Source: an uncultured Candidatus Saccharibacteria bacterium
GTDB taxonomy: Bacteria > Patescibacteriota > Dojkabacteria > CAZCSM01
Direction of reading: 5' to 3'
Length of the DNA: 64,000 bases
NCBI GenBank assembly: GCA_964501355.1
Contig: CAZCSM010000007.1
Coordinates: forward strand, 1,096 to 65,095
A program made the position numbers and the translations under genes. This document shows, piece after piece, positions 15,233 through 62,722 of the stretch (the stretch's first letter is position 1; every line of letters begins with the position of its first letter). The notes under the pieces were generated by a model, which did not search any database, was not told the DNA's origin, and worked only from the letters and a program-made list of their open reading frames with translations.

Positions 15233-15297
15233 ATCTCCATCTCCGCAATAATATTCTTCTGATTCCTCTTCACAAACATTACTGCAACCATCTCCAT

Positions 15298-24300: not shown

Positions 24301-27300
24301 AGTGAAATCGACACCAACAGGACGCACTTCGAATTGTGGTGTTAAAATATCGGGATTATTAGGATCTGTTGCTGTTAATTCTAAAACGACAGAAGATGGT
24401 GCCGTTCCACCAATTGGAATAGGTTCAAAAGATTCAGGAAGTAATTGCTTCAAGAATTCTGGATTATTCGGATAACCAAAGGGGCCTAAAGCAGTTCCCA
24501 TTTGTCCCGACTGGTAACCGGAACCACCTGAACGACTTATTAAACCAAGATTTACATAATCTGAACCATAAAGAATAGATATTCTACCACCACCACCACC
24601 ACCACCATCAAAAATATCATCTCCACCATTACCACCATCAACACTTATACTTCCAGCCGAAGAGAAATTAACAGTTCCCGCCTTTATAAAAACGCTACCG
24701 CCAGCACCACCGCCACCGCCAGGACTAGATATTCGACCATTGGTACCACTCATATCAATTGCACCAAGAATATTTACAGCCCCGCTCAAGGCGAATATAG
24801 AAAATGCCGAACCTCCAGCTCCTCCAGATGCACCAGCACCAGAAGTACCTCCACCACTACCTAATGATAAAGGACGCAAGGCATCACCATAACTCAACCC
24901 TCCAGCTGTTGTCCCGTTTATTCCATCGCTTGCTCCAAGACCACCATTACCACCATATGCACCGCCACCTCCACCACTACCTTGTCCTCCTCCAGCGATT
25001 GCCCCTGTACTTCCAACCCCAGGACCATCATTCGCCGGAAAGCCCAAACCTTTTCCGTCAATAACGGACCCTTCGCCTAAATCAAAACTATCTAAAACAT
25101 TAAAACTAACACCACCACCGGTTCTCTCATTATACGCATTATCATAATCATCCAAATATTGTTGATATTCGGCAAATGGCATCCCGTAAAAAAGAGCACG
25201 CATTTCTGTTTGAGTTAATGCACGATTATAAACAACAATTTCATCGAAAGTTCCCCATGAGTAATTTCTATCCACACGTCCACCGTTACCCAAGAATTGA
25301 ATAGGTGCAGTTACCTGAGACAGAGATGTTCCCACTAGCTCACCATTCACATAGAAATTAGTTTGACCACTATTGGATACTGCTCCGATATGATTCCAAC
25401 CTGTTAATGTGTTTACATTGTATCCAGAACTGTAGAATCCACCATTTAAGATCCCGAGAAGCCCATTACTGTTAACGACAATATGATGAGATGTTAAATC
25501 TGTATTATCTGCTAAAAGTATTCTGTATCCACCATAAGTGCCTGTATTTAACGGGAAGTTGGACCACGCACTTATTGAGTATGTTGAACCAAGATTTAAT
25601 GGTGATATTTCAAGCTTCTGTAACAAGTCTGTTTTTCTTGCTTTTCCATACTTACCATCAACAATTGTAGAGCCAAAAGAATTTGCATGATTTAAATTGA
25701 CACTCGCATCACATGCATCAAATGGATCTAGTTCTTCTACGATACATAGATTATCTTCCGTTTCGTTAAAATGCAAAAGCAGTGTAGTATATGTGTCTGC
25801 AACAATTTCCCTATCGACCTCAGGAAGTTCTGGATATACTAAGCCAGAAGGCAGTTTTGATGTATCACCAAACATTCGCGCTCGAACATTTTGAGAAATA
25901 AATACATTATCGAAATTATATGTTCCTGCAAAGAAATCTGTTCCTTCCGCACCGATAACATTACCGTTATTTAAATACAAATCACCATATTGCTGCTCGG
26001 ACTGTTTGATAAATATCGTTCCCGGACCACCTAAGTATCCGTAAGATTGAACTCGATCATTCCCAAAATCGAATCCATTATTTTCAGAGTAATAAATAGC
26101 TACTCGACCACCTCCACCATCATATTGGGCAGAAGATCCCTCATATCCATTAGCCTTAATCAACCCTGTACCTGATATTGTCCCAGCATTAATTAGGACC
26201 GATCCTCCACTACCTCCTCCCCAATTTAAACATTCTTCTCCTGCACCAGTCCTGACTCCAGCACCACCATTAGCAGATATTATTCCATTTATTAATAAAG
26301 TATCAATAACATCAATGTTTACACCCCCGCCTCCAGCACCACCAATCATATATGTCCATGCAATGCCAGAACAGTCATTTCCTGCACTTCCTAAATCTTT
26401 CGGAGAATATAGATCGCCGTATGTTAATGTTTTAGATTGAGCCTGCCCATGTCCTCCATATGTACCTCCTCCATAATTTGTTGTTCCAGATGGCCAGCCT
26501 GGTCCTTGAGGTTCCCTGTAACGTCCATAGCCATTACCATCCGCAGTAATTATTGAACCTTCGGAAACCTGAAGATTTGCTACACTTAACTCCGCACTAT
26601 AATCATTATCCCAAACATCATCGTCGCTTATATGAGACTCGAAAAATATTATACTGCTTAAGTTCATTGTCAAGTTTCTGAATTCGTATTTATCTTCATA
26701 GCCCCGGGCCCATGTATTGGGAATCAATGTTAACGCGCCAGAATATGTTGATCCCAAAGTTAAATCCTCTACACCCGTGTATTGACCATTCAATATAAGA
26801 TGAATACCGTCAGCAACAAACAAATCATTTCCTGATAATAATGTTCCATCTATTTGGAGAGAAGGTATGGTTGAATCCCCAGAGATTTCAGAACTTGAAT
26901 CTATTTCTAAGATAGAATTTGTACCCAATATAACCAAATCTCCATATCGAGATAAATTCACAGTATTGAATTTGTATTCATCTTCGATAAGCCCCGCTTC
27001 GTAACCACTTACTCCACCGTTATCAATATATAAATCACCATTTTCACTTGCTTCTGTAAAATAACTAACTTGTTCTACATATACCGTTCCAGGACCAGCA
27101 TTATTACCCCTTGCCATTATGTGCTCTCTGTCTACAAGAAATCCATAATTTTGTTCATAATACAAAGCAACCCTACCACCCGATCCTGAATATGCAACGG
27201 TACCACCATTTGCTGAAATAATACCATTTCCTAACGAAATTAAGTCTTTAACTTTAATATGAACACTTCCCCCGCTACCACCTCCCGATGAACTTGTGCC

Positions 27301-30300
27301 ACCATACATATTGTCACCATTTGAAGAAATGACACCATTCAAAGTAAGGGTGTTATCAACCGTCAAGTCTATAGCACCTCCGCCACTACCACCAATAAGA
27401 GAGGTAGAAGCACTAGAACCACAACTTCCTAGATGAGAAGGTCTAAAAACAGAACCATATATCTGACCCCCCTTATAAGGCCAATAACGAGTAGAAATTC
27501 CTCCATCTCGATACGATTCAGAAAAACCCCCATAACTACCTCCCGCCCGAAGATCTGTAAATCCAGGACCACAGTAAGAGGAATTTAATGGAAAGCGTGC
27601 CCCATAACCATATCCCATTCCATTTGCGTGTAAACTACCACCTGAATCAATCGTTAAATCAGAGACGGATAAATGTACTCCAAAATCATTCTCCCAATCC
27701 GTATCCATAGAATTGTAACTTATGCACCGCAATGTTCCTTGTGGTCCTATGTGTAAATTTTCAAAACTGTATGGATTATCCATTCCTCTTGCCCAAGTCT
27801 TTGCGTACAAAGTCATACCAGATGGAGACAGCAAACCAATATCAATATCTGATACACCTGCAATATCTCCATTAATCCCCAAATCAACACTTTCGATACC
27901 CAAAGCACCCTCACCAGTATATGTCAAGGTTCCATCAATTTTAGCAAATGGAACCGTTAAATCCCCCTGAAAGCCATCACCCGAATTTATCGTTAATATA
28001 GATGTTTCACCAAAGAAGATAACATCTCCATATCCTGTAAGATTTACACTTCCGAAACTATAATTCCCTTCAGGTACACCTGCAGATAAGCCCTGCACAG
28101 CATTATTGTCAACAAACAAGTCTCCATTATAACTTGGACTTGACGACAATGAAGACAACTGTTCTATGTATACTGTACCAGGACCTGATTCATTAGTACC
28201 TCTTGCATATATATTTGAAGTGCTTAATGGGAAACCCATATTATTAACATAATAAACTGCTATCCTGCCCCCTGCACCATCTCCATCACTTCCAGTGCCA
28301 GGATTCTTACCGTTTGCCTGAATAATTCCATCACCAACCAGATTCTGAGCTCGTAAAAATATTGAACCACCGGAACCAGCCCTGTCCTCACATCCAATGG
28401 CACTAGTCCTATAATACCCGCCACCATTACTGGTTATTGTTCCTAACAATGTTAATGAGCCGTTAACAGTTATTTCTATAGCACCGCCTCCAGCTCCGCC
28501 GTTACCACCCCTAGCACCGGCACCAGAACAATTAGACCCGCCACTACCAAGTAAGAGTGGTTCGTATATGCTACCGAAGGGATCTATTGTGTTAGATTCT
28601 CCATATCCGCCATATGTAGCACCAGCGTAAGACTTATAGCCAGGCCCCTTTTCGGATGTTCTAACCCGTCCATAACCTAATTCATTTGCATCTATAAAAC
28701 CTCCTGATAGCACTGTAATGTTTTCTGCGACCAACGGAACAACATAGTCATTCGTTTCATCTCTAGAATCGAGAGTGTCTCCAGACTCATAACTTCTAAT
28801 AAACAAGGAACTTCCACCGAACACTTCTATATCACCGAACACATATTGTGAAGTGGTGCCATATGCCCAAGTTCCCGAGAGCAAAGTTACGGCACCTGTA
28901 ACTGAATTACCAATCCGTAAATTAGTTACACCGCTCAAAGACCCCCCTACTATTAGATTTACACCATTCACATTCAAAGTGTCAGGTAGCAAATTTATAA
29001 ATGAACCATCTACTAGTAGCCCGGGAGAAGATGCATCTCCCGATAAAACTGAACTATCAGTTATTGTTAATGATGATGTCGAACCAATAAACCTTACATG
29101 ACCCCCTCTTGATAATTTAATCTTGGAGAAATTATAATCTCCGCTCAATACACCAGCATAGTTTGATTTAAGTAAATACCTGGCCTCGTCAAAAGTATCA
29201 GCTCCCTTGTAATGAACTATATCATTATTATCAACGTACAACTTACCCTGACTTGGATTATCAATCGCACGATCCTCTATATATACAGTACCCGCACCAG
29301 CACTTGAAACTTTGTCATCCCCATAATCTCCTCCATATGACCTTATAAAGTTCTGGACATTAGTGTCCGACATTGATAAACCGATTAGATTGTCGTAATA
29401 TATGGCAATTCTTCCACCGCCACCATCTGCAGTGCCGTAATAAGAACTAGTTCCTGATCCATTCGCAACAATCAAAGCACTGCTACTAAGCTCTAATAAC
29501 TCAGCATCTATATAAACACTTCCCCCAGAACCACGCAGTAAACCATTACTTGTAATCATTCCTGACAAACTCAGAGATCCTGTACCGTAAGTGTCTTTTG
29601 CGATAAGCTTAATCGCCCCACCACCTCTAGAATTGGCCAGTGTGCTTGAAGATCCTAAATCAGAGGGGGAAAATACACTTCCGTATACACCATTTTGGTA
29701 ATACGAACCATATCCGCCATAACTTGCTCCCGTGGTTCCGCGCCCCGCCCCCCTACCCGTACCATACCCCAATCCATTAGCATTAAATGTTGCATTCTCA
29801 TCAACCGTAATTGTTTTAGCTTCAAGTGTAACACCATAATCATCTGTCCAAACATCATTGGCATTATCGTATCCATAAAAATCAACAAAGCTGCCTCCTC
29901 TCACACGAAATGTTTCGAAAATATATTGTCCTCCAGTTCCCCAATTATTAGCGTGCAATCCCAAACGTGCCGTTGCCACAGCTCCAACATCGACATTGCT
30001 CACACCGCTTAGTGAGCCAAACCATTGCAAGTCTACGTTATTAACTGTGAATGTATCTATGCCCAAATAATTAAATGAACCACGCACAAGAATCTTTGTT
30101 GTGCCATCACCGATAATGGTCGAATTATTTGCTATACTTAAACTTGAGCCGCTACCTAAAAATTCCACATGACCATTTCTCTTTGTATCTATAGAAGAGA
30201 AATTGTAGATACCTGCTGTTATTGTAGCGGACTTTTCACAATTATTTCCGCCGACCAAACAAACCCTCGATGCGGCATCGACTATTAATTTTCCTTGTCC

Positions 30301-33120
30301 AGGAGAATGAATGCCTTTATTTTCAAAATATATTGTTCCTGGAGATCCATAATATGCTCCACCAGAAAACTCTCCACCACCATAAGCCTGTATATTTGTT
30401 GGAAATGAACCTCCACTCAACACCTCGTATTTTATTGAAACACGCCCTCCAGAACCGCCTCCACGCCCAGCTCTACCGTTTCCACCATTAGCCTTAATGT
30501 ATCCGTCGCCAGAAAAAACACTGGTATTTATTAAAACGCTTCCTCCTGTTGCCCCCCCTCTGTTATTCAATGTACCAGAATCGTTCAAACCATTTGCTGA
30601 TATTGTACCGTTGACACTTGTCGTTCCAGTTATTTCTAATTTAATAGCCCCACCACCGCTTACACCGGTTGTTGCACCACCACTACCAAGTGAAGTTGGA
30701 GATAAAACATCTCCATATGACGACCCATCGCCAATAATCGCTCCATATCCATATCCCCCGTAACTTGATCCCCCAGATTTATAACCCGGCCCCTTAGTTG
30801 AGAGGTAGCCTTGTCCATCAGCACTTACAAAAGCCCCTGTTTCAACAGTCAAATTATCAGCTAAAACAGTTACTCCAAAATCATTGTCATAAATACCGTC
30901 GTTGTTGTTGTATGACTCCAATGTCAAGGTTTTCCCTGTTTTAACAACTATTGATATGCCTCTACAATCAATTATTCCAGCATTTACTGGAGTTGCCGAC
31001 CATGTTGTATTCGTATCAATTATTCCATCCGCATCAGGACAAGATCCAAAGGATTCTACAACAGCTAAGGTATTAGAATACCCTTCAACCAAATCTTCAT
31101 CTACACCCTTAATTTTGATACCTTCTATTGTATCATACGTTGCATTATCAATAGTTATAGTACCATTAATAAGTGTTGCTGTAGGATTAGTACATTCTGC
31201 ACCAACACAAAATATACCCGTTCCTGGTAATCCTATATCAGAAGCCAAGACCGCTGACAAATCAATAATTTCATTATTCACTAAAACTAAATTATCAAAT
31301 GAGTCTCGAGCATTAACAGTAATTATAAATTCTTGACCAATAAATACAGCATTCGGAACAATTATTTCATAATACGAAGTATGATCAGATGCAGCGGATG
31401 CCGTAAAAATCATAGGTGAACCCGAAAGACCGCTTCTTGTTGCACTTGCAGTATTATTGTTAATTCCAGCTGTTGGACCAAGGGTTAGAATTGTGGAAAC
31501 AAGCCCAAAACGATTAGAACGTACTAACCCGACATCGGTTGACCCACCCCCTAAAACTGCCGCCCACGTAACATCATGATAATAGACCGGAATTCCAGCG
31601 ACATCTGTCACCATTGCAACAAATGGTTCTGTGAGAGGGTTTAAAACTGTACCTGTTTGATTATCGCCCGATATTTTAATCAACTGTGTGGGCACATCAG
31701 ATATCATGAAATCTGCATCAGTTTCTACGTTTTCTCCGAATGAGACCCATTCACTCACCGCACCAGCTTCATCACGAACGCGAACCTGCCAATGGTAACG
31801 CTTACTTTTAGGCAAATTCTCTATCAGCCATGTAATTGGAACCTCTACTCCTGCATACGCAATTTGTGCACCAGTATGTGTAGGCGCATTTATAAAAGGA
31901 GTATTTATTTCCTGAATTTCAATTTGTGGGTAAAGAATGTCTGTTCCATCTACATCCGATACATTCATTCGAAACTGGATATCATCACTTCGTGTAGACT
32001 CTCCGACATTAAGCTTGTTTGTTACATAAACACCGTCAATTAGTTCTCTATAAGCATATTGCTCAAGAGCAGTCGGAACATTTGGATAACAAGTAGGACC
32101 GATTAAAGTTCCTTCTTGACCATTTTGCAAACCACCAATACCGCCCGATACCACAGCAGAAAGTGTCCCAACTGCAATATTATTACTTTGTGTACAAAGC
32201 AATACAACCCTTCCACCGCCGCCGCCGCCGCCACGAACTCCTGCATCAATAGCATCTCCACCAATTGCAGAAACGTCACCACCTGCACCAGACAAAATTC
32301 TCGCATCTACCCAAACAGTACCACCCGAACCGCCACCACCTGAAGCTCCAAACAAAACCTCTTCAGAGGGAAGACCGTTTGCGTTAATAGAACCATTTAT
32401 TGTAACTTCCCCCGTTGTTGCATCGAGACAATCTGTTTTCTCCGTACCAGTAAGGGTATTACACGTTGAATCGATTTTCAAGAAACCTCCACCTGCACCA
32501 CCAACTGCTCCAGTACCGGCACTCCCTCCACCACTCCCCAAATAATTGGGAAGTAAACTATCCCCATACACATCACCCCCAGCACCTCCCAGTTCTACAC
32601 CCGAAGGAGACCCCTCACCTCCTGCACCTCCATAACCACCTCCACCTCCACCAGAAAGAACCGCTCCATCTCCACCCGCTCCTGCTCCTCTAGAAATAGA
32701 ATACCCCGTACCATCAGCGTTTATAACCGCACCTACCTCCAAATCCAAGCTTCCGACCAACCAAGTAACACCGTAATCATTTTCCCAATTATCATCACCA
32801 TTATCATAACCTTGAATAGTTATTGTAACACCTGTATCGACAACGATATGGGTCATAGAACAGTCAACAACACCACCCGTTGATATAAAAGATGCAGCAT
32901 TGAGTGTAACACTTTCACCTATCGTTAACGTACTTCCAGCATAATTACCCAATGATGCAGGACAACTATCCGCCGCTCGAAGTCCGAACAATGTTTTCCA
33001 ATCAATAGTGAAGATTAATATAATAATAAGAAATGCAGCAAGTATAACGCCAGCATATCTGAACGCTTTAATATTACGCTGAATAAATTCCTTCCATTTT
33101 GCAAGGTTCTCTCGAGTCAT
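21385..33120 (-). CDS. Giant (3911 aa) secreted/surface adhesin-like protein.
   Basis: N-terminal signal anchor. About 8 units of ~370 aa containing xDxWxNDYGVxL...NGxGYG plus a 'GGGAI(K/E/D)L...NGxISANG' motif, resembling Pmp-type beta-helix repeats. Gly-rich stretches. A LamG/concanavalin-like domain. A bacterial Ig (Big) domain. 4 tandem FN3-like domains. Two copies of a YHW(Q/R)xRVRDxxGxxSEWVSFG domain. C-terminal LPETGDEE, a TM segment, and a double CarbopepD_reg module homologous to the C-terminus of the 12860 ORF. Confidence 0.8.
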   Translation of the reverse strand: MTRENLAKWKEFIQRNIKAFRYAGVILAAFLIIILIFTIDWKTLFGLRAADSCPASLGNYAGSTLTIGESVTLNAASFISTGGVVDCSMTHIVVDTGVTITIQGYDNGDDNWENDYGVTWLVGSLDLEVGAVINADGTGYSISRGAGAGGDGAVLSGGGGGGYGGAGGEGSPSGVELGGAGGDVYGDSLLPNYLGSGGGSAGTGAVGGAGGGFLKIDSTCNTLTGTEKTDCLDATTGEVTINGSINANGLPSEEVLFGASGGGGSGGTVWVDARILSGAGGDVSAIGGDAIDAGVRGGGGGGGRVVLLCTQSNNIAVGTLSAVVSGGIGGLQNGQEGTLIGPTCYPNVPTALEQYAYRELIDGVYVTNKLNVGESTRSDDIQFRMNVSDVDGTDILYPQIEIQEINTPFINAPTHTGAQIAYAGVEVPITWLIENLPKSKRYHWQVRVRDEAGAVSEWVSFGENVETDADFMISDVPTQLIKISGDNQTGTVLNPLTEPFVAMVTDVAGIPVYYHDVTWAAVLGGGSTDVGLVRSNRFGLVSTILTLGPTAGINNNTASATRSGLSGSPMIFTASAASDHTSYYEIIVPNAVFIGQEFIITVNARDSFDNLVLVNNEIIDLSAVLASDIGLPGTGIFCVGAECTNPTATLINGTITIDNATYDTIEGIKIKGVDEDLVEGYSNTLAVVESFGSCPDADGIIDTNTTWSATPVNAGIIDCRGISIVVKTGKTLTLESYNNNDGIYDNDFGVTVLADNLTVETGAFVSADGQGYLSTKGPGYKSGGSSYGGYGYGAIIGDGSSYGDVLSPTSLGSGGATTGVSGGGAIKLEITGTTSVNGTISANGLNDSGTLNNRGGATGGSVLINTSVFSGDGYIKANGGNGRAGRGGGSGGRVSIKYEVLSGGSFPTNIQAYGGGEFSGGAYYGSPGTIYFENKGIHSPGQGKLIVDAASRVCLVGGNNCEKSATITAGIYNFSSIDTKRNGHVEFLGSGSSLSIANNSTIIGDGTTKILVRGSFNYLGIDTFTVNNVDLQWFGSLSGVSNVDVGAVATARLGLHANNWGTGGQYIFETFRVRGGSFVDFYGYDNANDVWTDDYGVTLEAKTITVDENATFNANGLGYGTGRGAGRGTTGASYGGYGSYYQNGVYGSVFSPSDLGSSSTLANSRGGGAIKLIAKDTYGTGSLSLSGMITSNGLLRGSGGSVYIDAELLELSSSALIVANGSGTSSYYGTADGGGGRIAIYYDNLIGLSMSDTNVQNFIRSYGGDYGDDKVSSAGAGTVYIEDRAIDNPSQGKLYVDNNDIVHYKGADTFDEARYLLKSNYAGVLSGDYNFSKIKLSRGGHVRFIGSTSSLTITDSSVLSGDASSPGLLVDGSFINLLPDTLNVNGVNLIVGGSLSGVTNLRIGNSVTGAVTLLSGTWAYGTTSQYVFGDIEVFGGSSLFIRSYESGDTLDSRDETNDYVVPLVAENITVLSGGFIDANELGYGRVRTSEKGPGYKSYAGATYGGYGESNTIDPFGSIYEPLLLGSGGSNCSGAGARGGNGGAGGGAIEITVNGSLTLLGTITSNGGGYYRTSAIGCEDRAGSGGSIFLRAQNLVGDGIIQANGKNPGTGSDGDGAGGRIAVYYVNNMGFPLSTSNIYARGTNESGPGTVYIEQLSSLSSSPSYNGDLFVDNNAVQGLSAGVPEGNYSFGSVNLTGYGDVIFFGETSILTINSGDGFQGDLTVPFAKIDGTLTYTGEGALGIESVDLGINGDIAGVSDIDIGLLSPSGMTLYAKTWARGMDNPYSFENLHIGPQGTLRCISYNSMDTDWENDFGVHLSVSDLTIDSGGSLHANGMGYGYGARFPLNSSYCGPGFTDLRAGGSYGGFSESYRDGGISTRYWPYKGGQIYGSVFRPSHLGSCGSSASTSLIGGSGGGAIDLTVDNTLTLNGVISSNGDNMYGGTSSSGGGSGGSVHIKVKDLISLGNGIISANGGTVAYSGSGGRVALYYEQNYGFLVDREHIMARGNNAGPGTVYVEQVSYFTEASENGDLYIDNGGVSGYEAGLIEDEYKFNTVNLSRYGDLVILGTNSILEIDSSSEISGDSTIPSLQIDGTLLSGNDLFVADGIHLILNGQYTGVEDLTLGSTYSGALTLIPNTWARGYEDKYEFRNLTMNLSSIIFFESHISDDDVWDNDYSAELSVANLQVSEGSIITADGNGYGRYREPQGPGWPSGTTNYGGGTYGGHGQAQSKTLTYGDLYSPKDLGSAGNDCSGIAWTYMIGGAGGGGVNIDVIDTLLINGIISANGGAGVRTGAGEECLNWGGGSGGSVLINAGTISGTGLIKANGYEGSSAQYDGGGGRVAIYYSENNGFDFGNDRVQSYGYLGGPGTIFIKQSEQQYGDLYLNNGNVIGAEGTDFFAGTYNFDNVFISQNVRARMFGDTSKLPSGLVYPELPEVDREIVADTYTTLLLHFNETEDNLCIVEELDPFDACDASVNLNHANSFGSTIVDGKYGKARKTDLLQKLEISPLNLGSTYSISAWSNFPLNTGTYGGYRILLADNTDLTSHHIVVNSNGLLGILNGGFYSSGYNVNTLTGWNHIGAVSNSGQTNFYVNGELVGTSLSQVTAPIQFLGNGGRVDRNYSWGTFDEIVVYNRALTQTEMRALFYGMPFAEYQQYLDDYDNAYNERTGGGVSFNVLDSFDLGEGSVIDGKGLGFPANDGPGVGSTGAIAGGGQGSGGGGGAYGGNGGLGASDGINGTTAGGLSYGDALRPLSLGSGGGTSGAGASGGAGGSAFSIFALSGAVNILGAIDMSGTNGRISSPGGGGGAGGSVFIKAGTVNFSSAGSISVDGGNGGDDIFDGGGGGGGRISILYGSDYVNLGLISRSGGSGYQSGQMGTALGPFGYPNNPEFLKQLLPESFEPIPIGGTAPSSVVLELTATDPNNPDILTPQFEVRPVGVDFTGTPTHTGVATNFTGTPIVIRTPITDLVNNTQYHWRARVRDDSGVFSEWVSFGGNPETSPDFIVTQMTKLVLTPSVNTINAGGFLSVQVHAEDDYGRVDTAYRGNVTFSSSDSAAVLPSDYTFVADDMGTKNFTNGVQLKTVGNRAITIIDSLNSSLTDTKNIDVLQSADDVIPLINLIPSIINNDGVASSVIEVTLLDSFDNPVIGTFVTLNATGTGNNLIQPIEATDENGKAFGRISSTVAENKVITVILNGDPQEASAILQVRDMVVPRIRNIQVTNITQTSAVISWETNEPTTGQVSYGVTSSYGNATDYINELSTTHSVTLTGLTAETLYHFQILARDASLNEVTSSDQTFTTLGYDLMITSLNISNVSTNSAIVSWTTNISASAILEYGTTTSYGQSAVISSVALNHTQTLNNLSIDTQYYIRVTAISGNLQDVETSNFSTLSSANAVQIINIKVSNITSNSAIVTFGTTKPASIVLNYGETIAYGFELTSSDYKETHSYLLENLISDTAYHFQIIASDQDGYRTRSADQMFRTLAEIPMVCAISDVLHERSSEKYLDVSWKTSCTDMICLVDYGETVAYGELVENIKPKVKAEYLQPLDISNLDDSEIHYRIICRKDEMQAKTRDYLYTNLLELPETGDEESFDWLDFIARVLIPALTTSGLLLQGLGFLSKVGGFPKLPQLWGAIFDKERKKQGWGIVFDIDKKAPIPFAIVRLYKAETNEMVEEVVTDLEGRYRFLAPEGKYTIGVEHADFVLPQASEDVMKGYDLTGKYLGGEIEVRDDFAVAYDIPLLPKAIADKDDKYHNFKDKFKVFMNKIGLWINVVGGVLMILGIIFAPTIWNFVLLGLNILILLIVAYITNVLSKNWGHVFELPMGDKVEGVFVRLFDLSDNKLINSQITDDKGRYGFLAEEGEYAVFVESPYYKQEEELKFTVEKKEKILKKNIGVSKVTDLPEELENMDTPFGM

Positions 33121-35085: not shown

Positions 35086-35097
35086 TTTCTATTTATT

Positions 35098-35232
35098 TTT
35101 TATCTGTATTCGGTTGATTAGTCGTTGAAGTCCGAAACGATAGCAGCCGGTTGCTATTTGTAAAAGGTTGATACTGGAAGGCGTGCTATTGTTTCGGAAA
35201 TTTTGGTTACTTTTGTTTGCAAAAGTAACATA
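35098..35232. repeat. ~135-bp structured intergenic repeat, type A, copy 1.
   Basis: Shares tgtattcggttg...gaagtc[ct]gaaac...ggttgctat...gtttc[ag]g...ttttggttacttttgtttgcaaaagtaaca with the copies at 39379, 58373 and 59400. Confidence 0.6.
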
Positions 35233-35252
35233 AAATTATTTAAAAAACTTTT

Positions 35253-39320: not shown

Positions 39321-39378
39321 TTTGTTAAATAAAAAATAAAGTTTTAAAGTTATTGTTTCTAAATATACTCTTTTCCCT

Positions 39379-39560
39379 TTGTTATCTGTATTCGGTTGTT
39401 AGTCATTGAAGTCTGAAACAAGCCATTCCGGTAGTTATATGTATTTGATTGCTATTTGTCGGAACTAATTCTCCTCTCTGTCACTTCGTGACATCTCTCC
39501 TCCATAGGAGGAAAGTCTTGTTTCAGGAATTTTGGTTACTTTTGTTCCCAAAAGTAACAC
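39379..39560. repeat. Structured intergenic repeat, type A, copy 2 (with a ~45-bp internal insertion).
   Basis: ttatctgtattcggttgttagtcattgaagtctgaaacaag...cttgtttcaggaattttggttacttttgttcccaaaagtaacac. Confidence 0.6.
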
Positions 39561-48241: not shown

Positions 48242-48484
48242 TTTAATAATTTTTGAATTAACAATTGTCCTCTAACGGAAGGTGCCGCTACACGAGCAAA
48301 TTGTTTTTCAAAAAATGAAAACAAAAAGCTCCCCGTCGGGAGCTATTAATATCGAGGAAAAATATCCAGCATTAACCCGACGAGCCTAAATCGTGGTCGT
48401 CGTTGTTACGTTGAATAAGTTTTGAAGATTTATGAAGCTTTTCATAGTGTGTAGATTATATCCTATAACAAATGGGGTTGCAAC

Positions 48485-49558
48485 CTAAACTTCAACAATC
48501 TCACTCGCCGCTTTTCTCAAACGATTCATCACGGCAAGTCCAAGCTCGATGTCCTCCAACCCCTCGCTTATTATAACATCAACACCTTCTTCATCAAATT
48601 CGCGAAGAACCCGAAACATATTTCTGCCAAAACTTTCCGGGTCATTTCCAATATATTTGACAACATCTGCTTTGAGATTAATATTAGGTTTCGTAGTCAT
48701 TACACCAATCTTCTTCCCTTCTGATTTGTGGGTATAAATAAGCTCAGAGATTTTCATGAGAACTCGCTCATCATCACCTTCGACTAAGATAATGTTCGCT
48801 TTCGGTGCATAATGAGTGTATTTCATTCCAGGAGAACGTGCCTCAACTTTTTCTTCCACCTTTCCCGACTGAACAACTTGATGTCTATTCACATCTCCTA
48901 ACACAGATCCAAGGTTCTCAAAGGTAATTTTACCGGGACGAAGAAGAGTTACGGGATTTGTTGTGGTATCAACAACAGTTGATTCCAAACCGACATCGGA
49001 CGAACCACCATCAATTATCATGGGAATTCGCCCATCCATATCTTGCAAAACATGATCCGCAGTTGTCGGACTTGGTTTTCCGGAAAGATTTGCAGATGGA
49101 GCTGCAATTGGCACACTGGCAGCTTCGATTAATGCTTTTGCAATTTCATTGGATGGCATACGGATCGCAACAGTATCCATACCTCCAGTTGTAATTAACG
49201 GAACAATTTTAGATTTTTTGAAAACCAGAGTCAATGGACCGGGGAAGAATTTCTCAATTAGAGTCTTTGCATTATCGGTTACTTCAGAAACCAGTGGATA
49301 AATCTGATCTAATTTTGATATGTGTAGAATCAAAGGATTATCAGCAGGTCGCCCTTTTGCCTTAAAGATTTTCATAACAGCCTCAGGATCTAAGCCATTA
49401 GCTCCAAGTCCGTAAACAGTTTCCGTCGGGAAAGCAACAACCTCCCCGGATTTAATAAGCTCAGCAGCTTCGCGAACTTTATTTAAATCAGGATTGTTAG
49501 GATTAAGCTTGATTAGTTGGGTGTACATAAAACAGATCTCATTCTTGCCAATATACAA
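48485..49558 (-). CDS. tsaC: L-threonylcarbamoyladenylate synthase, Sua5 type (YrdC domain plus Sua5 C-terminal domain).
   Basis: VVAFPTETVYGLGANGLDPEAVMKIFKAKGRPADNPLILHI signature, ~350 aa with the Sua5 C-terminal domain. The true start may be the Met at 49528. Confidence 0.85.
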   Translation of the reverse strand: MYIGKNEICFMYTQLIKLNPNNPDLNKVREAAELIKSGEVVAFPTETVYGLGANGLDPEAVMKIFKAKGRPADNPLILHISKLDQIYPLVSEVTDNAKTLIEKFFPGPLTLVFKKSKIVPLITTGGMDTVAIRMPSNEIAKALIEAASVPIAAPSANLSGKPSPTTADHVLQDMDGRIPMIIDGGSSDVGLESTVVDTTTNPVTLLRPGKITFENLGSVLGDVNRHQVVQSGKVEEKVEARSPGMKYTHYAPKANIILVEGDDERVLMKISELIYTHKSEGKKIGVMTTKPNINLKADVVKYIGNDPESFGRNMFRVLREFDEEGVDVIISEGLEDIELGLAVMNRLRKAASEIVEV

Positions 49559-49564
49559 TACATC

Positions 49565-49933
49565 TCATACAGATGGAGAAACGTCATGCTGAAAGGCGTC
49601 CAATAGCTTCAAACTACTGAAAACCTCATCTATTCTAGATGGCGATAATTTTCCAATGAAGTCGCCTAAATCCTTTTTGTTAACTAACGAAATATGAGAT
49701 GGGATTATTATACTGCGTTTGTCTAAATTACCTTCGCCAGCATCTAATAAAATGTTCCCAACCTCATACGCTTTTTTCATATTGGTCGATATTTCGCACA
49801 TTACAATTGATTCAATCCTGCTGTTGTTTATAATCGTATCCTGTATCACGAGCTGAGGATGGATAATACCTCGCATATTTCCATGTTCATCCATTGTGGG
49901 TGCCCAAAAGATATCTCCTCGAAAGATTTTCAT
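49565..49933 (-). CDS. MazF/PemK-family endoribonuclease toxin-like protein. No obvious cognate antitoxin.
   Basis: MKIFRGDIFWAP...HPQLVIQD...ESIVMCEIST...IIIPSHISLVNKKDLGDFIGKLSPSRIDEV follows the PemK/MazF SH3-like barrel pattern. The 190 bp upstream contain only 13-23-aa ORFs. Confidence 0.55.
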   Translation of the reverse strand: MKIFRGDIFWAPTMDEHGNMRGIIHPQLVIQDTIINNSRIESIVMCEISTNMKKAYEVGNILLDAGEGNLDKRSIIIPSHISLVNKKDLGDFIGKLSPSRIDEVFSSLKLLDAFQHDVSPSV

Positions 49934-50124
49934 TATTATTCTAAATTCATATGAAATGAGAATATTAAGACCAGACTTTGCACATTATACGCAAAAACGC
50001 TAGAATCATAAATAGTAATAGTTGAGAAAGGGAATGTCATTTAGCAATCTCTGAAAATAAATTAGATTGCTTCATCGTAAACTCTTCACAATGACAAAAC
50101 GCACTCATTGAACAGCTCTACAAC

Positions 50125-50385
50125 CTAAACACCCACAATCTCACTTGCCGCTTTTCTCAATCGATTCATTACAGCAAGTCCAAGCCCAATACCTTCCAAT
50201 CCTTCACTTATTATCACACGAATACCTTCTTCATCAAATTCACGAAGGACCCGAAACATATTTCTTCCAAAACTTTCCGGATCATTTCCAATGTATTTGA
50301 CCACGTCTGCCTCGAAGTTAACATTTTGTTTCGTAGTTATTACACCAACCTTCATACCATTTGATTTGTGGATAGAAATAAGCAC
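50125..50385 (-). pseudogene. Degenerate duplicate of the 3' ~260 bp of tsaC/sua5 (gene fragment).
   Basis: About 85% nucleotide identity to 48485-48750. The translation KVGVITTKQNVNFEADVVKYIGNDPESFGRNMFRVLREFDEEGIRVIISEGLEGIGLGLAVMNRLRKAASEIVGV aligns with the C-terminus of the intact Sua5. No upstream Sua5 N-terminal coding sequence is present. Confidence 0.65.
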
Positions 50386-50565
50386 AGAGATTTTTATTAT
50401 TTAATATAGCTTCGCGATTAGATGAAGTTTTTGCGTAGCAAAAATTGGGAAGAACCTCGAGCCGAGGGTCGAACCATCTAGTCGCTGTTATATTCGGGTC
50501 GAACGAATGGGAGAAGCGCAGCGACCCCGACGACTGTAAGGAGGAGAGAAAATTTCGAGCCCATT

Positions 50566-51063
50566 TTATTTTAAATTATTTAATGAATCTTCTAATTCAT
50601 TTAATTTAATGTATTCAATATCAAGTCCTATTTCTTCAGGAAGTTTTTGAGAGATGAATTCGTTTATTACATAGATTCTTTTAGGATTATAATATCTTGA
50701 AAAACCTATTTCTGCCATAACCATTCCACCATAACCTACACAAAACATCACATCACATTCTTCATTATATCTTGAAGGTTGATTAGGCCATTTTCCACAA
50801 GAAATTAATTCTCCTAAATTGGTATTCAAATAATCTTCGTAATCATCATCTAATGGAACAACTTCATATATTTTTTTACCATTATTCTTTAAATATTCTT
50901 CTCCGAACAATTCCAATAGGGAATTTTTATCAGGGGTTAGAAGAATTTCAAAACCCGTTTTTGCTAAAATTCTTGCAACTTTCCTTAAATTAATTTTTCT
51001 GATTTCTAGTTCTTCTTTATTTAATTGAGGACATTGGTTAGGTCCAATAATTCCTATTCTCAT
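50566..51063 (-). CDS. LOG/TIGR00725-family Rossmann-fold protein (lysine-decarboxylase-like). AT-rich gene.
   Basis: MRIGIIGPNQ N-terminus and VGYGGMVMAE, similar to the LOG PGGxGTxxE motif. The local GC is clearly lower than in the neighbours. Confidence 0.5.
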   Translation of the reverse strand: MRIGIIGPNQCPQLNKEELEIRKINLRKVARILAKTGFEILLTPDKNSLLELFGEEYLKNNGKKIYEVVPLDDDYEDYLNTNLGELISCGKWPNQPSRYNEECDVMFCVGYGGMVMAEIGFSRYYNPKRIYVINEFISQKLPEEIGLDIEYIKLNELEDSLNNLK

Positions 51064-51244
51064 ACAAATTATATAAATACATTAATTTAAGTTATTTTCT
51101 ATTTTTAAGGGCCCAAAAATTTATTGAATATAACCAGTTACTATGCGAAGTGTTTTCACAATTCATACATTTCGTTGTACTTTTTGTGAACAACCTTGGT
51201 ATAATAACTTTAAATCAACTATCTGAAGTTTATCACATCTTAAC

Positions 51245-51946
51245 ATGAAAATTGACATAATCACACTATTCCCGCAAATGTTCTCGGGACCATTTGATGA
51301 AAGTATTGTAAAACGGGCACAAGACAAGGGACTTGTTGAAATTGAAATTCACGATTTGCGAAAATGGACAGATGATAAACGAAAAACTGTTGATGACAAA
51401 CCATTCGGAGGCGGTGCGGGAATGGTAATGAAAGTGGAGCCCGTTTATCGCGCAGTTAAGGAATTGCGAACAGAAGACTCTTTAGTAATTTACACCACAC
51501 CTCAAGGCAGAAAATTAGAACAAAGCTTGAGTAATAAATTTTCTACTCAGACACATTTAATCATACTTTGTGGCCACTACGAAGGGCTAGATGAGAGAGC
51601 GAGAGAAAATTTAATTGATGTAGAAGTATCAATTGGTGACTTTGTACTAACAGGAGGAGAGCTTCCTGCAATGGTAATCGTTGATTCTATTGTAAGGCTA
51701 ATTCCCGGAGTACTTGGCAAAGAGGAATCCCATCAGAACGAGTCTTTCATGGAAGTTGACGGTACAAAGTTACTCGAGCATCCGCATTACACCCAGCCTG
51801 CCGAATTTGTAACAGATGAAGGTGAAACATGGGCTGTTCCGGATGTTCTACTTTCCGGACATCACGAGAACATCGAAAAATGGAGAAAAGAGCAGTCAGT
51901 TAAAAGGACTGAAGAAAGAAGACCGGACCTGCTGAAAAGGTTGTAG
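51245..51946 (+). CDS. trmD: tRNA (guanine37-N1)-methyltransferase.
   Basis: MKIDIITLFPQMF...DDKPFGGGAGMVMKVEPV...LCGHYEGLDERA, the classic TrmD SPOUT signatures. Confidence 0.9.
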   Translation: MKIDIITLFPQMFSGPFDESIVKRAQDKGLVEIEIHDLRKWTDDKRKTVDDKPFGGGAGMVMKVEPVYRAVKELRTEDSLVIYTTPQGRKLEQSLSNKFSTQTHLIILCGHYEGLDERARENLIDVEVSIGDFVLTGGELPAMVIVDSIVRLIPGVLGKEESHQNESFMEVDGTKLLEHPHYTQPAEFVTDEGETWAVPDVLLSGHHENIEKWRKEQSVKRTEERRPDLLKRL

Positions 51947-52018
51947 GTTCTAGTTTCGAGTTCGATGAGCCCAATACAGATTTCTAAATTCTAAACAAAT
52001 CCCGATTTTAAACCATAC

Positions 52019-52148
52019 TGTCTCATTCGGGGTCTGGGGAGATGTGTGTTTCCTCGGGCAAAGATGACTAGAATATCTCAGACTGCAAACGGGAAAATCC
52101 ACATCTCTCCAGCGGTTTTGGTTACTTTTGTCGTCAAAAGTAACAGAA
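52019..52148. repeat. ~130-bp structured intergenic repeat, type B, copy 1.
   Basis: tcattcggggtctggggagatgtgtg...cacatctctccagcggttttggttacttttgtcgtcaaaagtaacag, with the same 3' hairpin as type A. Confidence 0.55.
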
Positions 52149-52395
52149 ATCTACACGCTACCTCGAATGAATGCACAGACTATCAAATTGTACCCCAATG
52201 ATTACTTCTATATAGGTTTATAACCCAATACCGTTGCTGCAACCCTTTCCTTCTTGCAACTTGAAACCTGGCAACTTGTAACAGCTTCTTCCTTTTTTCT
52301 TTTTTAATTTATCATTTTGAGATTTGATTTTTGAACTTTGATTTTTAACACACAATTCTCTATATTAGAAGGAGAATAATATCTGCCTTGAAATA

Positions 52396-53094
52396 ATGCT
52401 CAACGGAAAAATCGTAAACTTCTTCAAAATAATTGTAGTCTTCATCAGCCTCGGAGTAATCGGCGGAGTGGCCTATTATATACTTTCGGACAATGATGTA
52501 ATTGATTTAAACGTTATCCCCGAAGTTGAAGGTGGAATCGAATTCAAGGTATTAATACCCGGAATAGAGCTTGAGAAGGTGGTTATTCCAAACGTAGATC
52601 CAAGAGACGAAGCAATTTATAAAGAAGCTTTCAAACAAGGTGTTGCGCATGGACTCGGAACAAAGTTCCCTGATGAAATTGGAAACACATACCTTTATGC
52701 TCACAGCACAAGAGATGTAGATGACATTGAGAAAAATGCAGGATGGTTTACCAGACTTGATGAACTTGCAATCGGTGATGAATTTGAAATCATCTACGGA
52801 CAAAACATTTACACGTATTCAATTGCCTCAAGAGAAGTAATTGATCCAAGAGCAACTGGTGTTTATACCGCATATGCACCAGTGCAAATGGTTACTTTAC
52901 AGACATGCTATCCGAGAGGAGAGATCGAAGAACGGTTAATAATTAAAGCTCTTCTTCTAAAATCCGAACCGAGATTAGCCGAAGTTACAAATGAGGATTC
53001 TGAGTCTGCTATTGTATTTTTCCAAGACTCTTACTTATTCGCTCATCATCAGATCCCAATGATCCTTGAGCAACGGAAATTGAAAAAAGTATAG
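52396..53094 (+). CDS. srt: Sortase (transpeptidase) with an N-terminal membrane anchor.
   Basis: N-terminal TM segment. Catalytic His in NTYLYAHSTRD. TLxTC motif MVTLQTCYPRG. Conserved Arg in EERLIIKA. The C-terminal ~30 codons overlap the convergent small ORF and may be non-native. Confidence 0.75.
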   Translation: MLNGKIVNFFKIIVVFISLGVIGGVAYYILSDNDVIDLNVIPEVEGGIEFKVLIPGIELEKVVIPNVDPRDEAIYKEAFKQGVAHGLGTKFPDEIGNTYLYAHSTRDVDDIEKNAGWFTRLDELAIGDEFEIIYGQNIYTYSIASREVIDPRATGVYTAYAPVQMVTLQTCYPRGEIEERLIIKALLLKSEPRLAEVTNEDSESAIVFFQDSYLFAHHQIPMILEQRKLKKV

Positions 53095-53311
53095 CAATTA
53101 CAGCAAAGATTCCCCCTGCGATATACAAACCTGTCGAGATATTTCCACACAGTTCCTGATTCTGCTGAAACCAATTTAAACTCCCTGTAACTCCCGCAGG
53201 TAATATTGAATCTTCCGCCGAAAGTCCATTTAGAATTAAACCCAGAACGATTGAAAGTGGTGATAATACCTGAAAGAAAACCATTAGAGATACTTTACTT
53301 GAACTGCCCAT
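53009..53311 (-). CDS. Small hypothetical membrane protein.
   Basis: 100-aa ORF with two hydrophobic segments. It overlaps the sortase 3' end convergently by ~85 bp, so the call is uncertain. Confidence 0.3.
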   Translation of the reverse strand: MGSSSKVSLMVFFQVLSPLSIVLGLILNGLSAEDSILPAGVTGSLNWFQQNQELCGNISTGLYIAGGIFAVIAILFSISVAQGSLGSDDERISKSLGKIQ

Positions 53312-58225: not shown

Positions 58226-58372
58226 TTTGGAAAATTTGATATAAAAAATAAAAACTGCACAATAACCAAATAGGTTTTATGGGGCAGTTTTTTAATTAAG
58301 TGTTAACACTAAGATACACACTCAGAGGAAAGTATGTCAAGGGAAATCTCTTACTTTCTTTTCTTCTTTTTT

Positions 58373-58509
58373 TGTTACCTGGATTTCGGTTGTTAGACGT
58401 TGAAGTCTGAAACAACAGATGTCGGTTGCTATCTGTTTCAAGGTCGTGCTTGGAGGACGTTCTGTTGTTTCAGAAATTTTGGTTACTTTTGTTTGCAAAA
58501 GTAACAGAA
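58373..58509. repeat. Structured intergenic repeat, type A, copy 3.
   Basis: The internal 13-bp perfect stem ctgaaacaacaga / tctgttgtttcag encloses the conserved cggttgctatctgtttcaaggtcgtgcttggag. The 3' hairpin is ggttacttttgtttgcaaaagtaac. Confidence 0.6.
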
Positions 58510-59269: not shown

Positions 59270-59399
59270 TTCTAAAAATTTCGAATAAATTACTACTAAT
59301 AATTTATAACAGAAGAGATGAGAAAACAAATTTAAAGAAAGGGTTTCGAATTTTGAATAACGAGTAATGAAGATCTTTCGGAAAGTTGTGTTTCTGTCT

Positions 59400-59535
59400 T
59401 TGTTACCTGTATTCGGTTGTTAGCAGTCGAAGTCTGAAACAAGTGATTCCGGTTGCTATCTGTTTCAAGGTCGTGCTTGGAGGGAGTTCACTTGTTTCAG
59501 GACTTTTGCATACTTTTGGTCACAAAAGTATGAGA
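59400..59535. repeat. Structured intergenic repeat, type A, copy 4.
   Basis: The stem ctgaaacaagtga / tcacttgtttcag shows compensatory changes relative to copy 3. The 3' hairpin variant is gcatacttttggtcacaaaagtatgag. Confidence 0.6.
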
Positions 59536-62597: not shown

Positions 62598-62722
62598 CTT
62601 TTGGGGTCTGGGGGGATGTATGTTTTCTCGGGTAAAGATAAATTCATTATTTCAAAATACAAACGGAAAATGCTACATCCTCCCAGCACTTTTGGTTACT
62701 TTTTGTGTAAAAAGTAACAGAA
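62598..62722. repeat. Structured intergenic repeat, type B, copy 2.
   Basis: ggggtctggggggatgtatg...tacatcctcccagcacttttggttactttttgtgtaaaaagtaacag. The stem shows compensatory changes relative to B1. Confidence 0.55.

Follow-up and report, generated by a model that had tools for sequence, protein, structure and literature searches.

A probable remnant of a second tsaC allele beside a solitary MazF gene in an uncultured Candidatus Saccharibacteria bacterium

Toxin genes of the PemK/MazF fold do not always have an antitoxin gene at their side. Solo genes account for more than half of the largest toxin families (PMC2701414, Makarova et al. 2009), and in Myxococcus xanthus an unrelated regulator acts in trans on the solitary MazF-mx (PMC4803016). 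Gene remnants left beside functional genes have been described as well: homology-facilitated illegitimate recombination (HFIR) is one mechanism that can produce them (PMC3240628), and the displacement arrays of type VI secretion system (T6SS) loci consist of 3' remnants (PMC5361080). In such arrays, as in those of contact-dependent inhibition (CDI) and Rhs loci, the displaced ends gather on the downstream side of the full gene, alongside immunity genes. Here we analysed a locus that combines both features, a MazF gene with no antitoxin and a 3' fragment of tsaC, the gene for threonylcarbamoyl-AMP synthase. It lies in a stretch of 64,000 nt (the window) of contig CAZCSM010000007.1 from an uncultured Candidatus Saccharibacteria bacterium. 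On the minus strand, which carries all the genes of interest, the order is: a low-GC gene of 165 aa, a spacer, the tsaC 3' fragment, a gap, mazF, an intact tsaC and the threonine-tRNA ligase gene thrS (Table 1; all coordinates are positions in the window). We consider it probable that this locus is a recombination scar, in which the remnant of a second tsaC allele lies beside a MazF that is an orphan across its family. It resembles the remnants of allelic replacement and HFIR in having a truncated, in-frame piece of a second allele beside a functional gene, a single illegitimate junction and foreign DNA alongside. From the T6SS, CDI and Rhs arrays it differs in that the remnant is single, derives from a housekeeping gene and lies upstream, and in that the mechanism is inferred.

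When the window was compared with itself using blastn, the two copies of the tsaC 3' end aligned without gaps over 277 bp, with 43 mismatches (84.5% identity, E 3e-83). A sequence-only reading of this DNA had already noticed a repeat of about 85% identity that keeps the reading frame and has no upstream remainder, and this description held. The repeat ends 4 nt past the TAG stop codon common to both copies and starts 12 nt ahead of the open reading frame (ORF) of the fragment, which is open over 86 aa and matches the Pfam family Sua5_C at positions 58-136 of 136 (E 5e-19). The fragment lacks the entire YrdC catalytic domain (PF01300) and the first 57 positions of Sua5_C, whereas the intact gene has both domains; since it has no YrdC domain, the fragment cannot make threonylcarbamoyl-AMP. 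In the window self-comparison, no homology to the rest of tsaC was found upstream of 50397, and none was found beyond the repeat. The fragment had also been placed at the 3' side of tsaC, but it lies 5' of both mazF and the intact tsaC, upstream of the two and in the same orientation.

We also weighed the possibility that the tsaC alleles of two strains had been collapsed or chained into one contig, which we regard as extremely improbable. The source is metagenome-assembled, and the Logan contig L001 (DRR835035), identical at 100% to window positions 50373..48456, starts and ends within the two repeat copies, as happens at repeats. The same contig, however, crosses the fragment, the gap, mazF and tsaC, and a second one from another run, L084 (SRR8925812), identical at 100% to positions 53280..49816, spans the fragment and has unique sequence to either side of it. 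The two are independent assemblies and jointly cross all the junctions; moreover no overlap exists at 50397/50398 through which k-mers could have been wrongly joined, and identity between the copies is no more than 84%. Within the limits of public data an assembler artefact is very unlikely, given that each junction is reproduced at 100% identity in two independent assemblies, and the misassembly that the sequence-only reading had named as a way to overturn its view did not materialise.

The fragment had been described as degenerate, but its ORF is intact and its differences from the intact gene are mostly synonymous. The 43 differences are spread as 7/9/27 over codon positions 1/2/3 and correspond, by the Nei-Gojobori method, to 23 synonymous and 20 non-synonymous changes (dS 0.55, dN 0.10, dN/dS 0.18), an excess of synonymous changes with a binomial P of 5e-6. 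In a neutral simulation, in which 43 random changes were placed with the observed transition:transversion ratio, 28.2 +/- 2.6 amino-acid differences were expected against the 17 observed (P 1e-4), and a stop codon arose in 54% of the runs; the fragment has none. Most of the divergence accumulated while both sequences were under protein-level selection. The fragment and the intact tsaC are mutual closest relatives (81% at the amino-acid level), both at 60-62% from the next relatives, and compared with distant outgroups the fragment is somewhat farther off than the intact gene. With 16 outgroups as reference, the 17 amino-acid differences were polarised as follows. On the fragment side about 7 are derived, among them Asp to Arg and Asp to Gly changes at sites where 12-15 outgroups conserve Asp; on the side of the intact gene the derived changes number about 3-4, one of them being Gly to Glu at a site that is Gly in 14 outgroups; the other 6 are of ambiguous polarity. 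Branch-specific dS with outgroup DNA is unsuitable here, as synonymous sites are saturated at 60% amino-acid identity. We read this pattern as that of two sister tsaC alleles that would have diverged while constrained, before constraint on the fragment was relaxed for a short time, perhaps about 5-10% of the fragment branch (a rough estimate from an excess of about 3-6 non-synonymous changes). Neutral changes would then be so few that an open frame is expected by chance, and the fragment is most likely a young pseudogene with a frame of just this kind.

These results bear directly on the idea that the 3' end of the resident tsaC was duplicated in place when a mazF module inserted and that the extra copy has been decaying since. 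Such an event would leave mazF flanked by two copies in the same orientation, it would fit the radical changes of the fragment at conserved sites (D to R, D to G), and a foreign-looking gene does adjoin the fragment. Neutral decay, however, predicts a dN/dS near 1 on the fragment branch, and the shortage of amino-acid differences, the 27 of 43 changes at third positions and the missing stop codon all contradict this. Derived residues occur in the intact copy too, the fragment is found on the upstream and not the downstream side of that copy, and mazF is host-like in composition (its GC of 37.4% and the 38.7% of the fragment are both typical of the window), with no mobile-element neighbours and no plasmid or phage relatives. 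Duplication in situ followed by decay was rejected because the divergence arose mainly under purifying selection, and we hold this explanation to be quite unlikely.

Hardly any weight falls on a second alternative, in which an integrative element, targeting the tsaC 3' end and bringing a replacement for it, would have left the repeats as its attL/attR-like ends. Repeats of a 3' end that share an orientation and end just past the stop codon do resemble the traces of 3'-end integrators, but nothing lies between these two except the gap, mazF and the 5' 770 bp of tsaC itself, and no integrase, transposase, excisionase or replication gene was found within 46-53.5 kb (Pfam and NCBIfam for the integrases and transposases). 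The identity of 84% is scattered over the 277 bp, without an identical core. After integration at a 3' end, or after a Campbell-type single crossover, the complete gene comes first and the displaced piece lies downstream; here the order is the reverse.

The flanks of the two copies also differ. Downstream of the intact tsaC there is a 95-bp non-coding element (48374-48468) that is 83% identical to positions 2248-2342 of the relative L086, where it again lies downstream of tsaC, while the 3' flank of the fragment matches none of the fetched loci. By this comparison the intact copy retains the ancestral type of 3' flank. As a separate observation, the 95-bp element is better conserved than tsaC itself (the tsaC of L086 is 73% identical); it precedes a terminator-like hairpin (48344-48327), has no Rfam match and could be a small RNA or the leader of the threonine-tRNA ligase gene.

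The repeat, its geometry, the non-neutral divergence, the junctions, the solitary state of MazF across its clade and the fold of the low-GC gene are results of the analysis; the order of events given next is our inference. There would once have been two functional tsaC genes, about 16% apart in DNA and each other's closest relatives, either as alleles of two related lineages, one of which was later transferred in, or as two copies within one genome. In a first step the tsaC allele of a close relative, with mazF or next to it, would have been joined beside the resident tsaC to give tsaC-mazF-tsaC, for instance through HFIR anchored in the common downstream flank. In a second step the redundant upstream copy would have lost its 5' part of about 770 bp at the illegitimate junction 50397/50398, which now adjoins the GC-rich spacer and a presumably horizontally acquired gene of the LOG/Moco-carrier-protein (MCP) fold. 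This truncation would be recent relative to the divergence of the two copies, and the last 90 codons (50397..50121) remain. Were the present repeats to recombine, mazF would be lost and with it the 5' part of the sole functional tsaC; such deletions would be counter-selected, and this may help the arrangement to persist. In a synteny scan with one genome per species the best tsaC was 52-53% identical, and a big protein collection contributed two tsaC relatives of 72-73% protein identity, on contigs of 2-3 kb with different neighbours and no mazF; no closer relative was available, and either of the two copies may be the resident allele.

The gene between the copies had been taken for a PemK/MazF gene, and both the profile match and the sequence matches to solved structures agreed. 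It matches PF02452 with 51.1 bits (cut-off 23.1) over profile positions 2-107 of 109, and its closest solved structures are Mycobacterium tuberculosis MazF6 (5hk0, E 2.6e-10) and Bacillus subtilis MazF/EndoA (4mdx, E 1.4e-7). With these two it shares the length, G6, G18, P26, N36 and the Ser/Thr of the I-S/T-S/T-N motif; it differs from them in being only 25-30% identical, in R25 to H and E20 to M, and in that they have an adjacent MazE. All 11 columns that are invariant in an alignment of 21 family members are kept (11/11). The counterpart of Thr48 is present, as I-S49-T50-N51 aligns with the I-T-A/S motif, but in place of the canonical Arg25-Pro26 the protein has His25-Pro26, with His25 aligned to the catalytic Arg25 of B. 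subtilis MazF and His found in 21/21 of the aligned members. Arg25 is needed for the activity of MazF-Da, in which the Arg25-to-Ala change is inactive, and Arg25 and Thr48 are needed for the toxicity of MazF-Bs (PMC8634880). His25 is nevertheless probably a variant of the active site and not an inactivating change, because distant members of the family that do bear an antitoxin share it. Overall the window MazF would appear to be an intact, selected, sequence-specific endoribonuclease.

To place the missing antitoxin in context we compared the gene neighbourhoods of 85 MazF-family loci, 80 of them metagenome loci. There was no conserved partner in about 60 of the 85, nor in any of the 10 nearest relatives (10/10), and the five nearest (56-65% identity; L002, L003, L171/L172 and L173) had no small partner on either side and occupied unrelated neighbourhoods. 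The sole conserved neighbour is an antitoxin of about 84 aa, weakly RHH_1/CcdA-like in Pfam (below threshold), which runs 4-8 nt into the start of mazF. It is present in 20 loci, each with a MazF at most 45% identical to that of the window, and in none of those whose MazF is at least 49% identical. A profile built from 15 of these partner antitoxins found no match in the six frames of the 64-kb window (best E 0.13), in agreement with the earlier claim that no antitoxin is recognisable, and a search with PADLOC and PHROGs returned only 'MazF-like'. That claim had been coupled to the statement that only ORFs of 13-23 aa lie upstream of mazF, which has to be corrected, since the gap holds an ORF of 34 aa (Table 1). 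This ORF has no match in Pfam or PADLOC, and there is no adjacent co-oriented antitoxin. No sign of an RNA antitoxin was seen either: there are no tandem repeats in 49400-51200, the gap has a fold z-score of -0.05 and it gives no Rfam match above chance. Among the solitary relatives there is no conserved small upstream ORF or operator, their ORFs being unrelated and their palindromes different.

No plasmid or phage relatives of the MazF were found by tblastn (E up to 1e-8), and tsaC and MazF were not associated in any of the 85 MazF-family loci or 82 tsaC loci. The solitary state is a trait of this MazF clade and not a result of the rearrangement, because the clade lacks an antitoxin everywhere, in unrelated contexts, and the window MazF is not half of an addiction module. 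Like the solo toxins and MazF-mx it is a PemK/MazF-fold gene without an adjacent antitoxin; it differs from them in having no known partner in trans, in His25 and in its apparent co-transcription with a housekeeping gene. The sequence-only reading had proposed that a past insertion or rearrangement captured a small mobile or addiction module by duplication of the tsaC 3' end. Its rearrangement stands, with a truncated copy, an illegitimate junction and a foreign gene; its capture of a module does not, given the geometry, the dN/dS of 0.18, the solo MazF throughout the clade and the lack of anything mobile nearby.

Four of the other MazF loci deserve mention in their own right. In L140 (2791-3360) and L148 (2812-3366) the antitoxin profile matches the ORF of the MazF itself, a possible antitoxin-toxin fusion. 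In L114 (141-245) and L117 (957-1070), both counted as 'solitary', upstream ORFs whose last residues are ..ERKW or ..KEVE are similar to the partner antitoxin at its C-terminus; these short ORFs could be mini-antitoxins or remnants. In the window, the mazF ATG adjoins an imperfect palindrome of 36 bp (49933-49968), which has CATATG at its centre and 15/18 arm positions paired; it was equalled or beaten by 5/200 shuffles and is not common to the solitary relatives.

In the 36 nt between the end of mazF and the ATG of tsaC we found no terminator-like or promoter-like match, and mazF is probably co-transcribed with tsaC. Sharing a transcript with the essential tsaC would argue for an RNase that is mild, tightly specific or under some other control and not for an unchecked toxin; the MazF may be intrinsically mild, or it may be kept in check in trans or through its expression.

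Several points weigh against reading the locus as the scar of a second allele beside a clade-wide orphan. Neither the arrangement before the event nor the donor was seen, as no genome above about 85% nucleotide identity was found. L084 and L001 may share the population of the source metagenome-assembled genome (MAG) and say nothing on how far the arrangement has spread. The Arg25-to-Ala change abolishes canonical MazF activity (PMC8634880) and the window MazF has His25, and the count of His25 across the 85 loci is biased, one of the retrieval patterns having contained 'HP'. A MazF that is not neutralised, on one transcript with an essential gene, is unexplained. Finally, selection on the 86-aa ORF itself would give an equally low dN/dS, and a K to M change specific to the fragment makes an in-frame ATG (50355).

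The main live rival is that the ORF of 76-86 aa derived from Sua5_C is a selected small protein, either a neutraliser or regulator of MazF or a modulator of TsaC. Besides the open frame and the low dN/dS, it would explain the position of the ORF upstream of mazF in the same orientation, which is antitoxin-like, and NCBI annotates a 76-aa gene at the ATG just mentioned. Yet the ORF begins in the middle of Sua5_C (profile position 58 of 136), which makes autonomous folding doubtful; it lies 187 bp from mazF, where genuine partners overlap by 4-8 nt; neither of its starts is preceded by a Shine-Dalgarno-like sequence; and no tsaC-like sequence stands beside MazF in the 85 other loci. The surplus of derived radical changes on the fragment branch points to relaxed constraint, and divergence before the truncation fully explains the low dN/dS, so we consider a selected small protein unlikely. 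Bolder still, and less probable in our judgement, is the proposal that control of the antitoxin-less His25 MazF, co-transcribed with tsaC, has been taken over by the Sua5_C-derived ORF, through a small protein that it encodes or through its DNA serving as promoter or leader. On a wider view, the mostly solitary His25 clade may be an exapted housekeeping RNase and not a toxin.

On the far side of the fragment, the recombination scar that we favour borders on sequence of a different character. The spacer had been reported as a segment of unassigned structure, and so it remains: it is 168 bp long with 47% GC, contains no tRNA and no Rfam match, has a fold z-score of -0.8 against shuffles and, like the gap, resembles none of the fetched loci. 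Inspection of the spacer by eye suggested a T-arm-like hairpin, ATTCG-TTCGACC-CGAAT, but neither ARAGORN nor the Rfam tRNA model supported it and it was discarded. The spacer holds GGGTCGAAC twice (50466-50474 and 50496-50504), 30 nt apart, which could be chance. It is also bracketed by an imperfect direct repeat, 18/23 nt, whose copies (50391-50413 and 50570-50592) are the left edge of the tsaC fragment and the 3' end of the 165-aa gene. We considered whether this 23-nt repeat might mark a target duplication or a junction formed by microhomology, but it is unreliable, about 0.05-0.6 chance matches being expected in so AT-rich a stretch (a rough estimate).

The 165-aa gene was correctly singled out for its markedly low GC. 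Its GC of 27.1% and GC at third codon positions (GC3) of 14.5% are the lowest of the 43 genes of the window (z -3.7 and -3.3). Its assignment to the LOG/TIGR00725 family fared less uniformly, being borne out at the level of the fold and not in Pfam or NCBIfam, where the protein had no match at E up to 10 save a chance one to DUF4292, and no match at E up to 1, respectively. The AlphaFold2 (AF2) model (pLDDT 96, pTM 0.91) was compared with the Protein Data Bank (PDB) using Foldseek and matched MCP 6y01 (E 2.7e-6, TM 0.74) and 2iz5, LOG 5zbj (TM 0.71) and TM1055 1rcu (TM 0.74), with TM scores of 0.70-0.76 and E values of about 1e-5 to 1e-6 overall. With the LOG, Moco-carrier and TIGR00725-like Rossmann proteins the predicted protein shares its fold and an invariant Glu118 in a glycine-rich G-Y-G-G...E segment; it differs from them in being 10-16% identical, in matching no profile and in that PGGxGTxxE is unrecognisable, the region reading VGYGGMVMAE. 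On the model, 'LOG-like' is right for the fold of this protein and unproven for its family.

Relatives of the 165-aa gene are 79-86% identical in amino acids and about 80-82% in nucleotides; for comparison, tsaC finds none above 73%. They keep a GC of 27-29% in loci of 31-38% GC and occur in unrelated contexts (L167-L170), in MAGs labelled candidate phyla radiation (CPR) and Nanoarchaeota or Woesearchaeota. This conservation points to recent horizontal spread or to extreme constraint. In L167/L168 and in L170 the homologue is followed by a Peptidase_S51 gene, with another context in L169, and the similarity of L167/L168 to the window runs for 78 bp upstream of the start codon.

Table 1 Features of the tsaC-mazF locus, listed in minus-strand order (positions in the 64,000-nt window).
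Feature	Position	Strand	Remarks
165-aa low-GC gene	50566..51063	-	LOG/Moco-carrier-protein fold (predicted), GC 27%; compositional outlier
Spacer, 168 bp	50398..50565	.	GC 47% against a window mean of 38%; left edge is the illegitimate junction, end of tsaC homology
Repeat copy 2, probable 5'-truncated remnant of a diverged tsaC allele	50121..50397	-	Open frame 50385..50125 (86 aa), or 76 aa from ATG 50355
AT-rich gap, 187 bp, GC 30%	49934..50120	-	Contains 34-aa ORF 50040..49936 and the 36-bp imperfect palindrome
Orphan PemK/MazF-family gene, 122 aa	49565..49933	-	PF02452; His25 in place of the canonical catalytic Arg25
Intact tsaC/sua5, threonylcarbamoyl-AMP synthase, 347 aa	48485..49528	-	Pfam Sua5_yciO_yrdC E 8.8e-61 and Sua5_C E 7.8e-36
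Repeat copy 1	48481..48757	-	Final 90 codons of intact tsaC, stop codon and 4 nt
Threonine-tRNA ligase, archaeal type, catalytic core only, 449 aa	46892..48241	-	NCBIfam PRK03991 positions 153-610/613, E 6.8e-109; Pfam tRNA-synt_2b and HGTP_anticodon

The intact tsaC probably starts at the ATG at 49528, with an in-frame upstream alternative at TTG 49558. The relatives P0046 and P0047 begin at the equivalent ATG, and the gene called on L001 is also 347 aa long. A 243-bp intergenic region, which holds the terminator-like hairpin described above, separates it from the threonine-tRNA ligase gene, which is context downstream of tsaC and outside the rearrangement. On the other side, beyond 51245, trmD and a sortase gene lie on the opposite strand. 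Both tsaC and the adjacent threonine-tRNA ligase, a core without the editing domain, have an archaeal look, and the closest named tsaC relatives come from Nanoarchaeota MAGs (58% identity); the window is otherwise bacterial in its gene content, with two GreA paralogs, an L,D-transpeptidase, TrmD and LysRS and SerRS of the bacterial type.

Elsewhere in the window, the self-comparison recovered two families of dispersed repeats of about 120-140 bp that are 74-93% identical, with sites at 58364-58503, 59392-59530, 35092-35233, 39377-39442 and 39518-39559, and also at 52026-52148 and 62600-62722. Such repeats might represent miniature mobile elements, or else RNA or terminator modules present in several copies. 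Many internal repeats, of 64-88% identity (mostly 64-72%), occupy 13918-15667 around an ORF of 790 aa (12860-15232) and reach the start of the neighbouring 1176-aa ORF, which indicates a repetitive protein region. A single ORF of 3911 aa extends over 21385-33120 on the minus strand. Together with the CPR labels of the MAGs in which relatives of the 165-aa gene occur, this ORF makes it probable that the bacterium belongs to the CPR.

Taken as a whole the locus is a further instance of known things, a gene remnant of allelic replacement and a solitary MazF, and it leaves the current understanding of TA (toxin-antitoxin) systems and of the synthesis of N6-threonylcarbamoyladenosine (t6A) unchanged. 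For the His25 subfamily of MazF, whose members are mostly solitary, annotation as 'type II TA toxins' is probably misleading. The LOG/Moco-carrier-fold gene is very conserved and intrinsically AT-rich, and it recurs in unrelated contexts of genomes labelled CPR and DPANN. If the fragment had indeed been recruited, it would link a MazF-type RNase to the expression of the t6A tRNA-modification pathway. The test on the pattern of substitutions separates a decayed duplicate from the remnant of a second functional allele, and the locus offers a small, clean example of allelic gain and loss at an essential gene in the reduced genome of an uncultivated bacterium.

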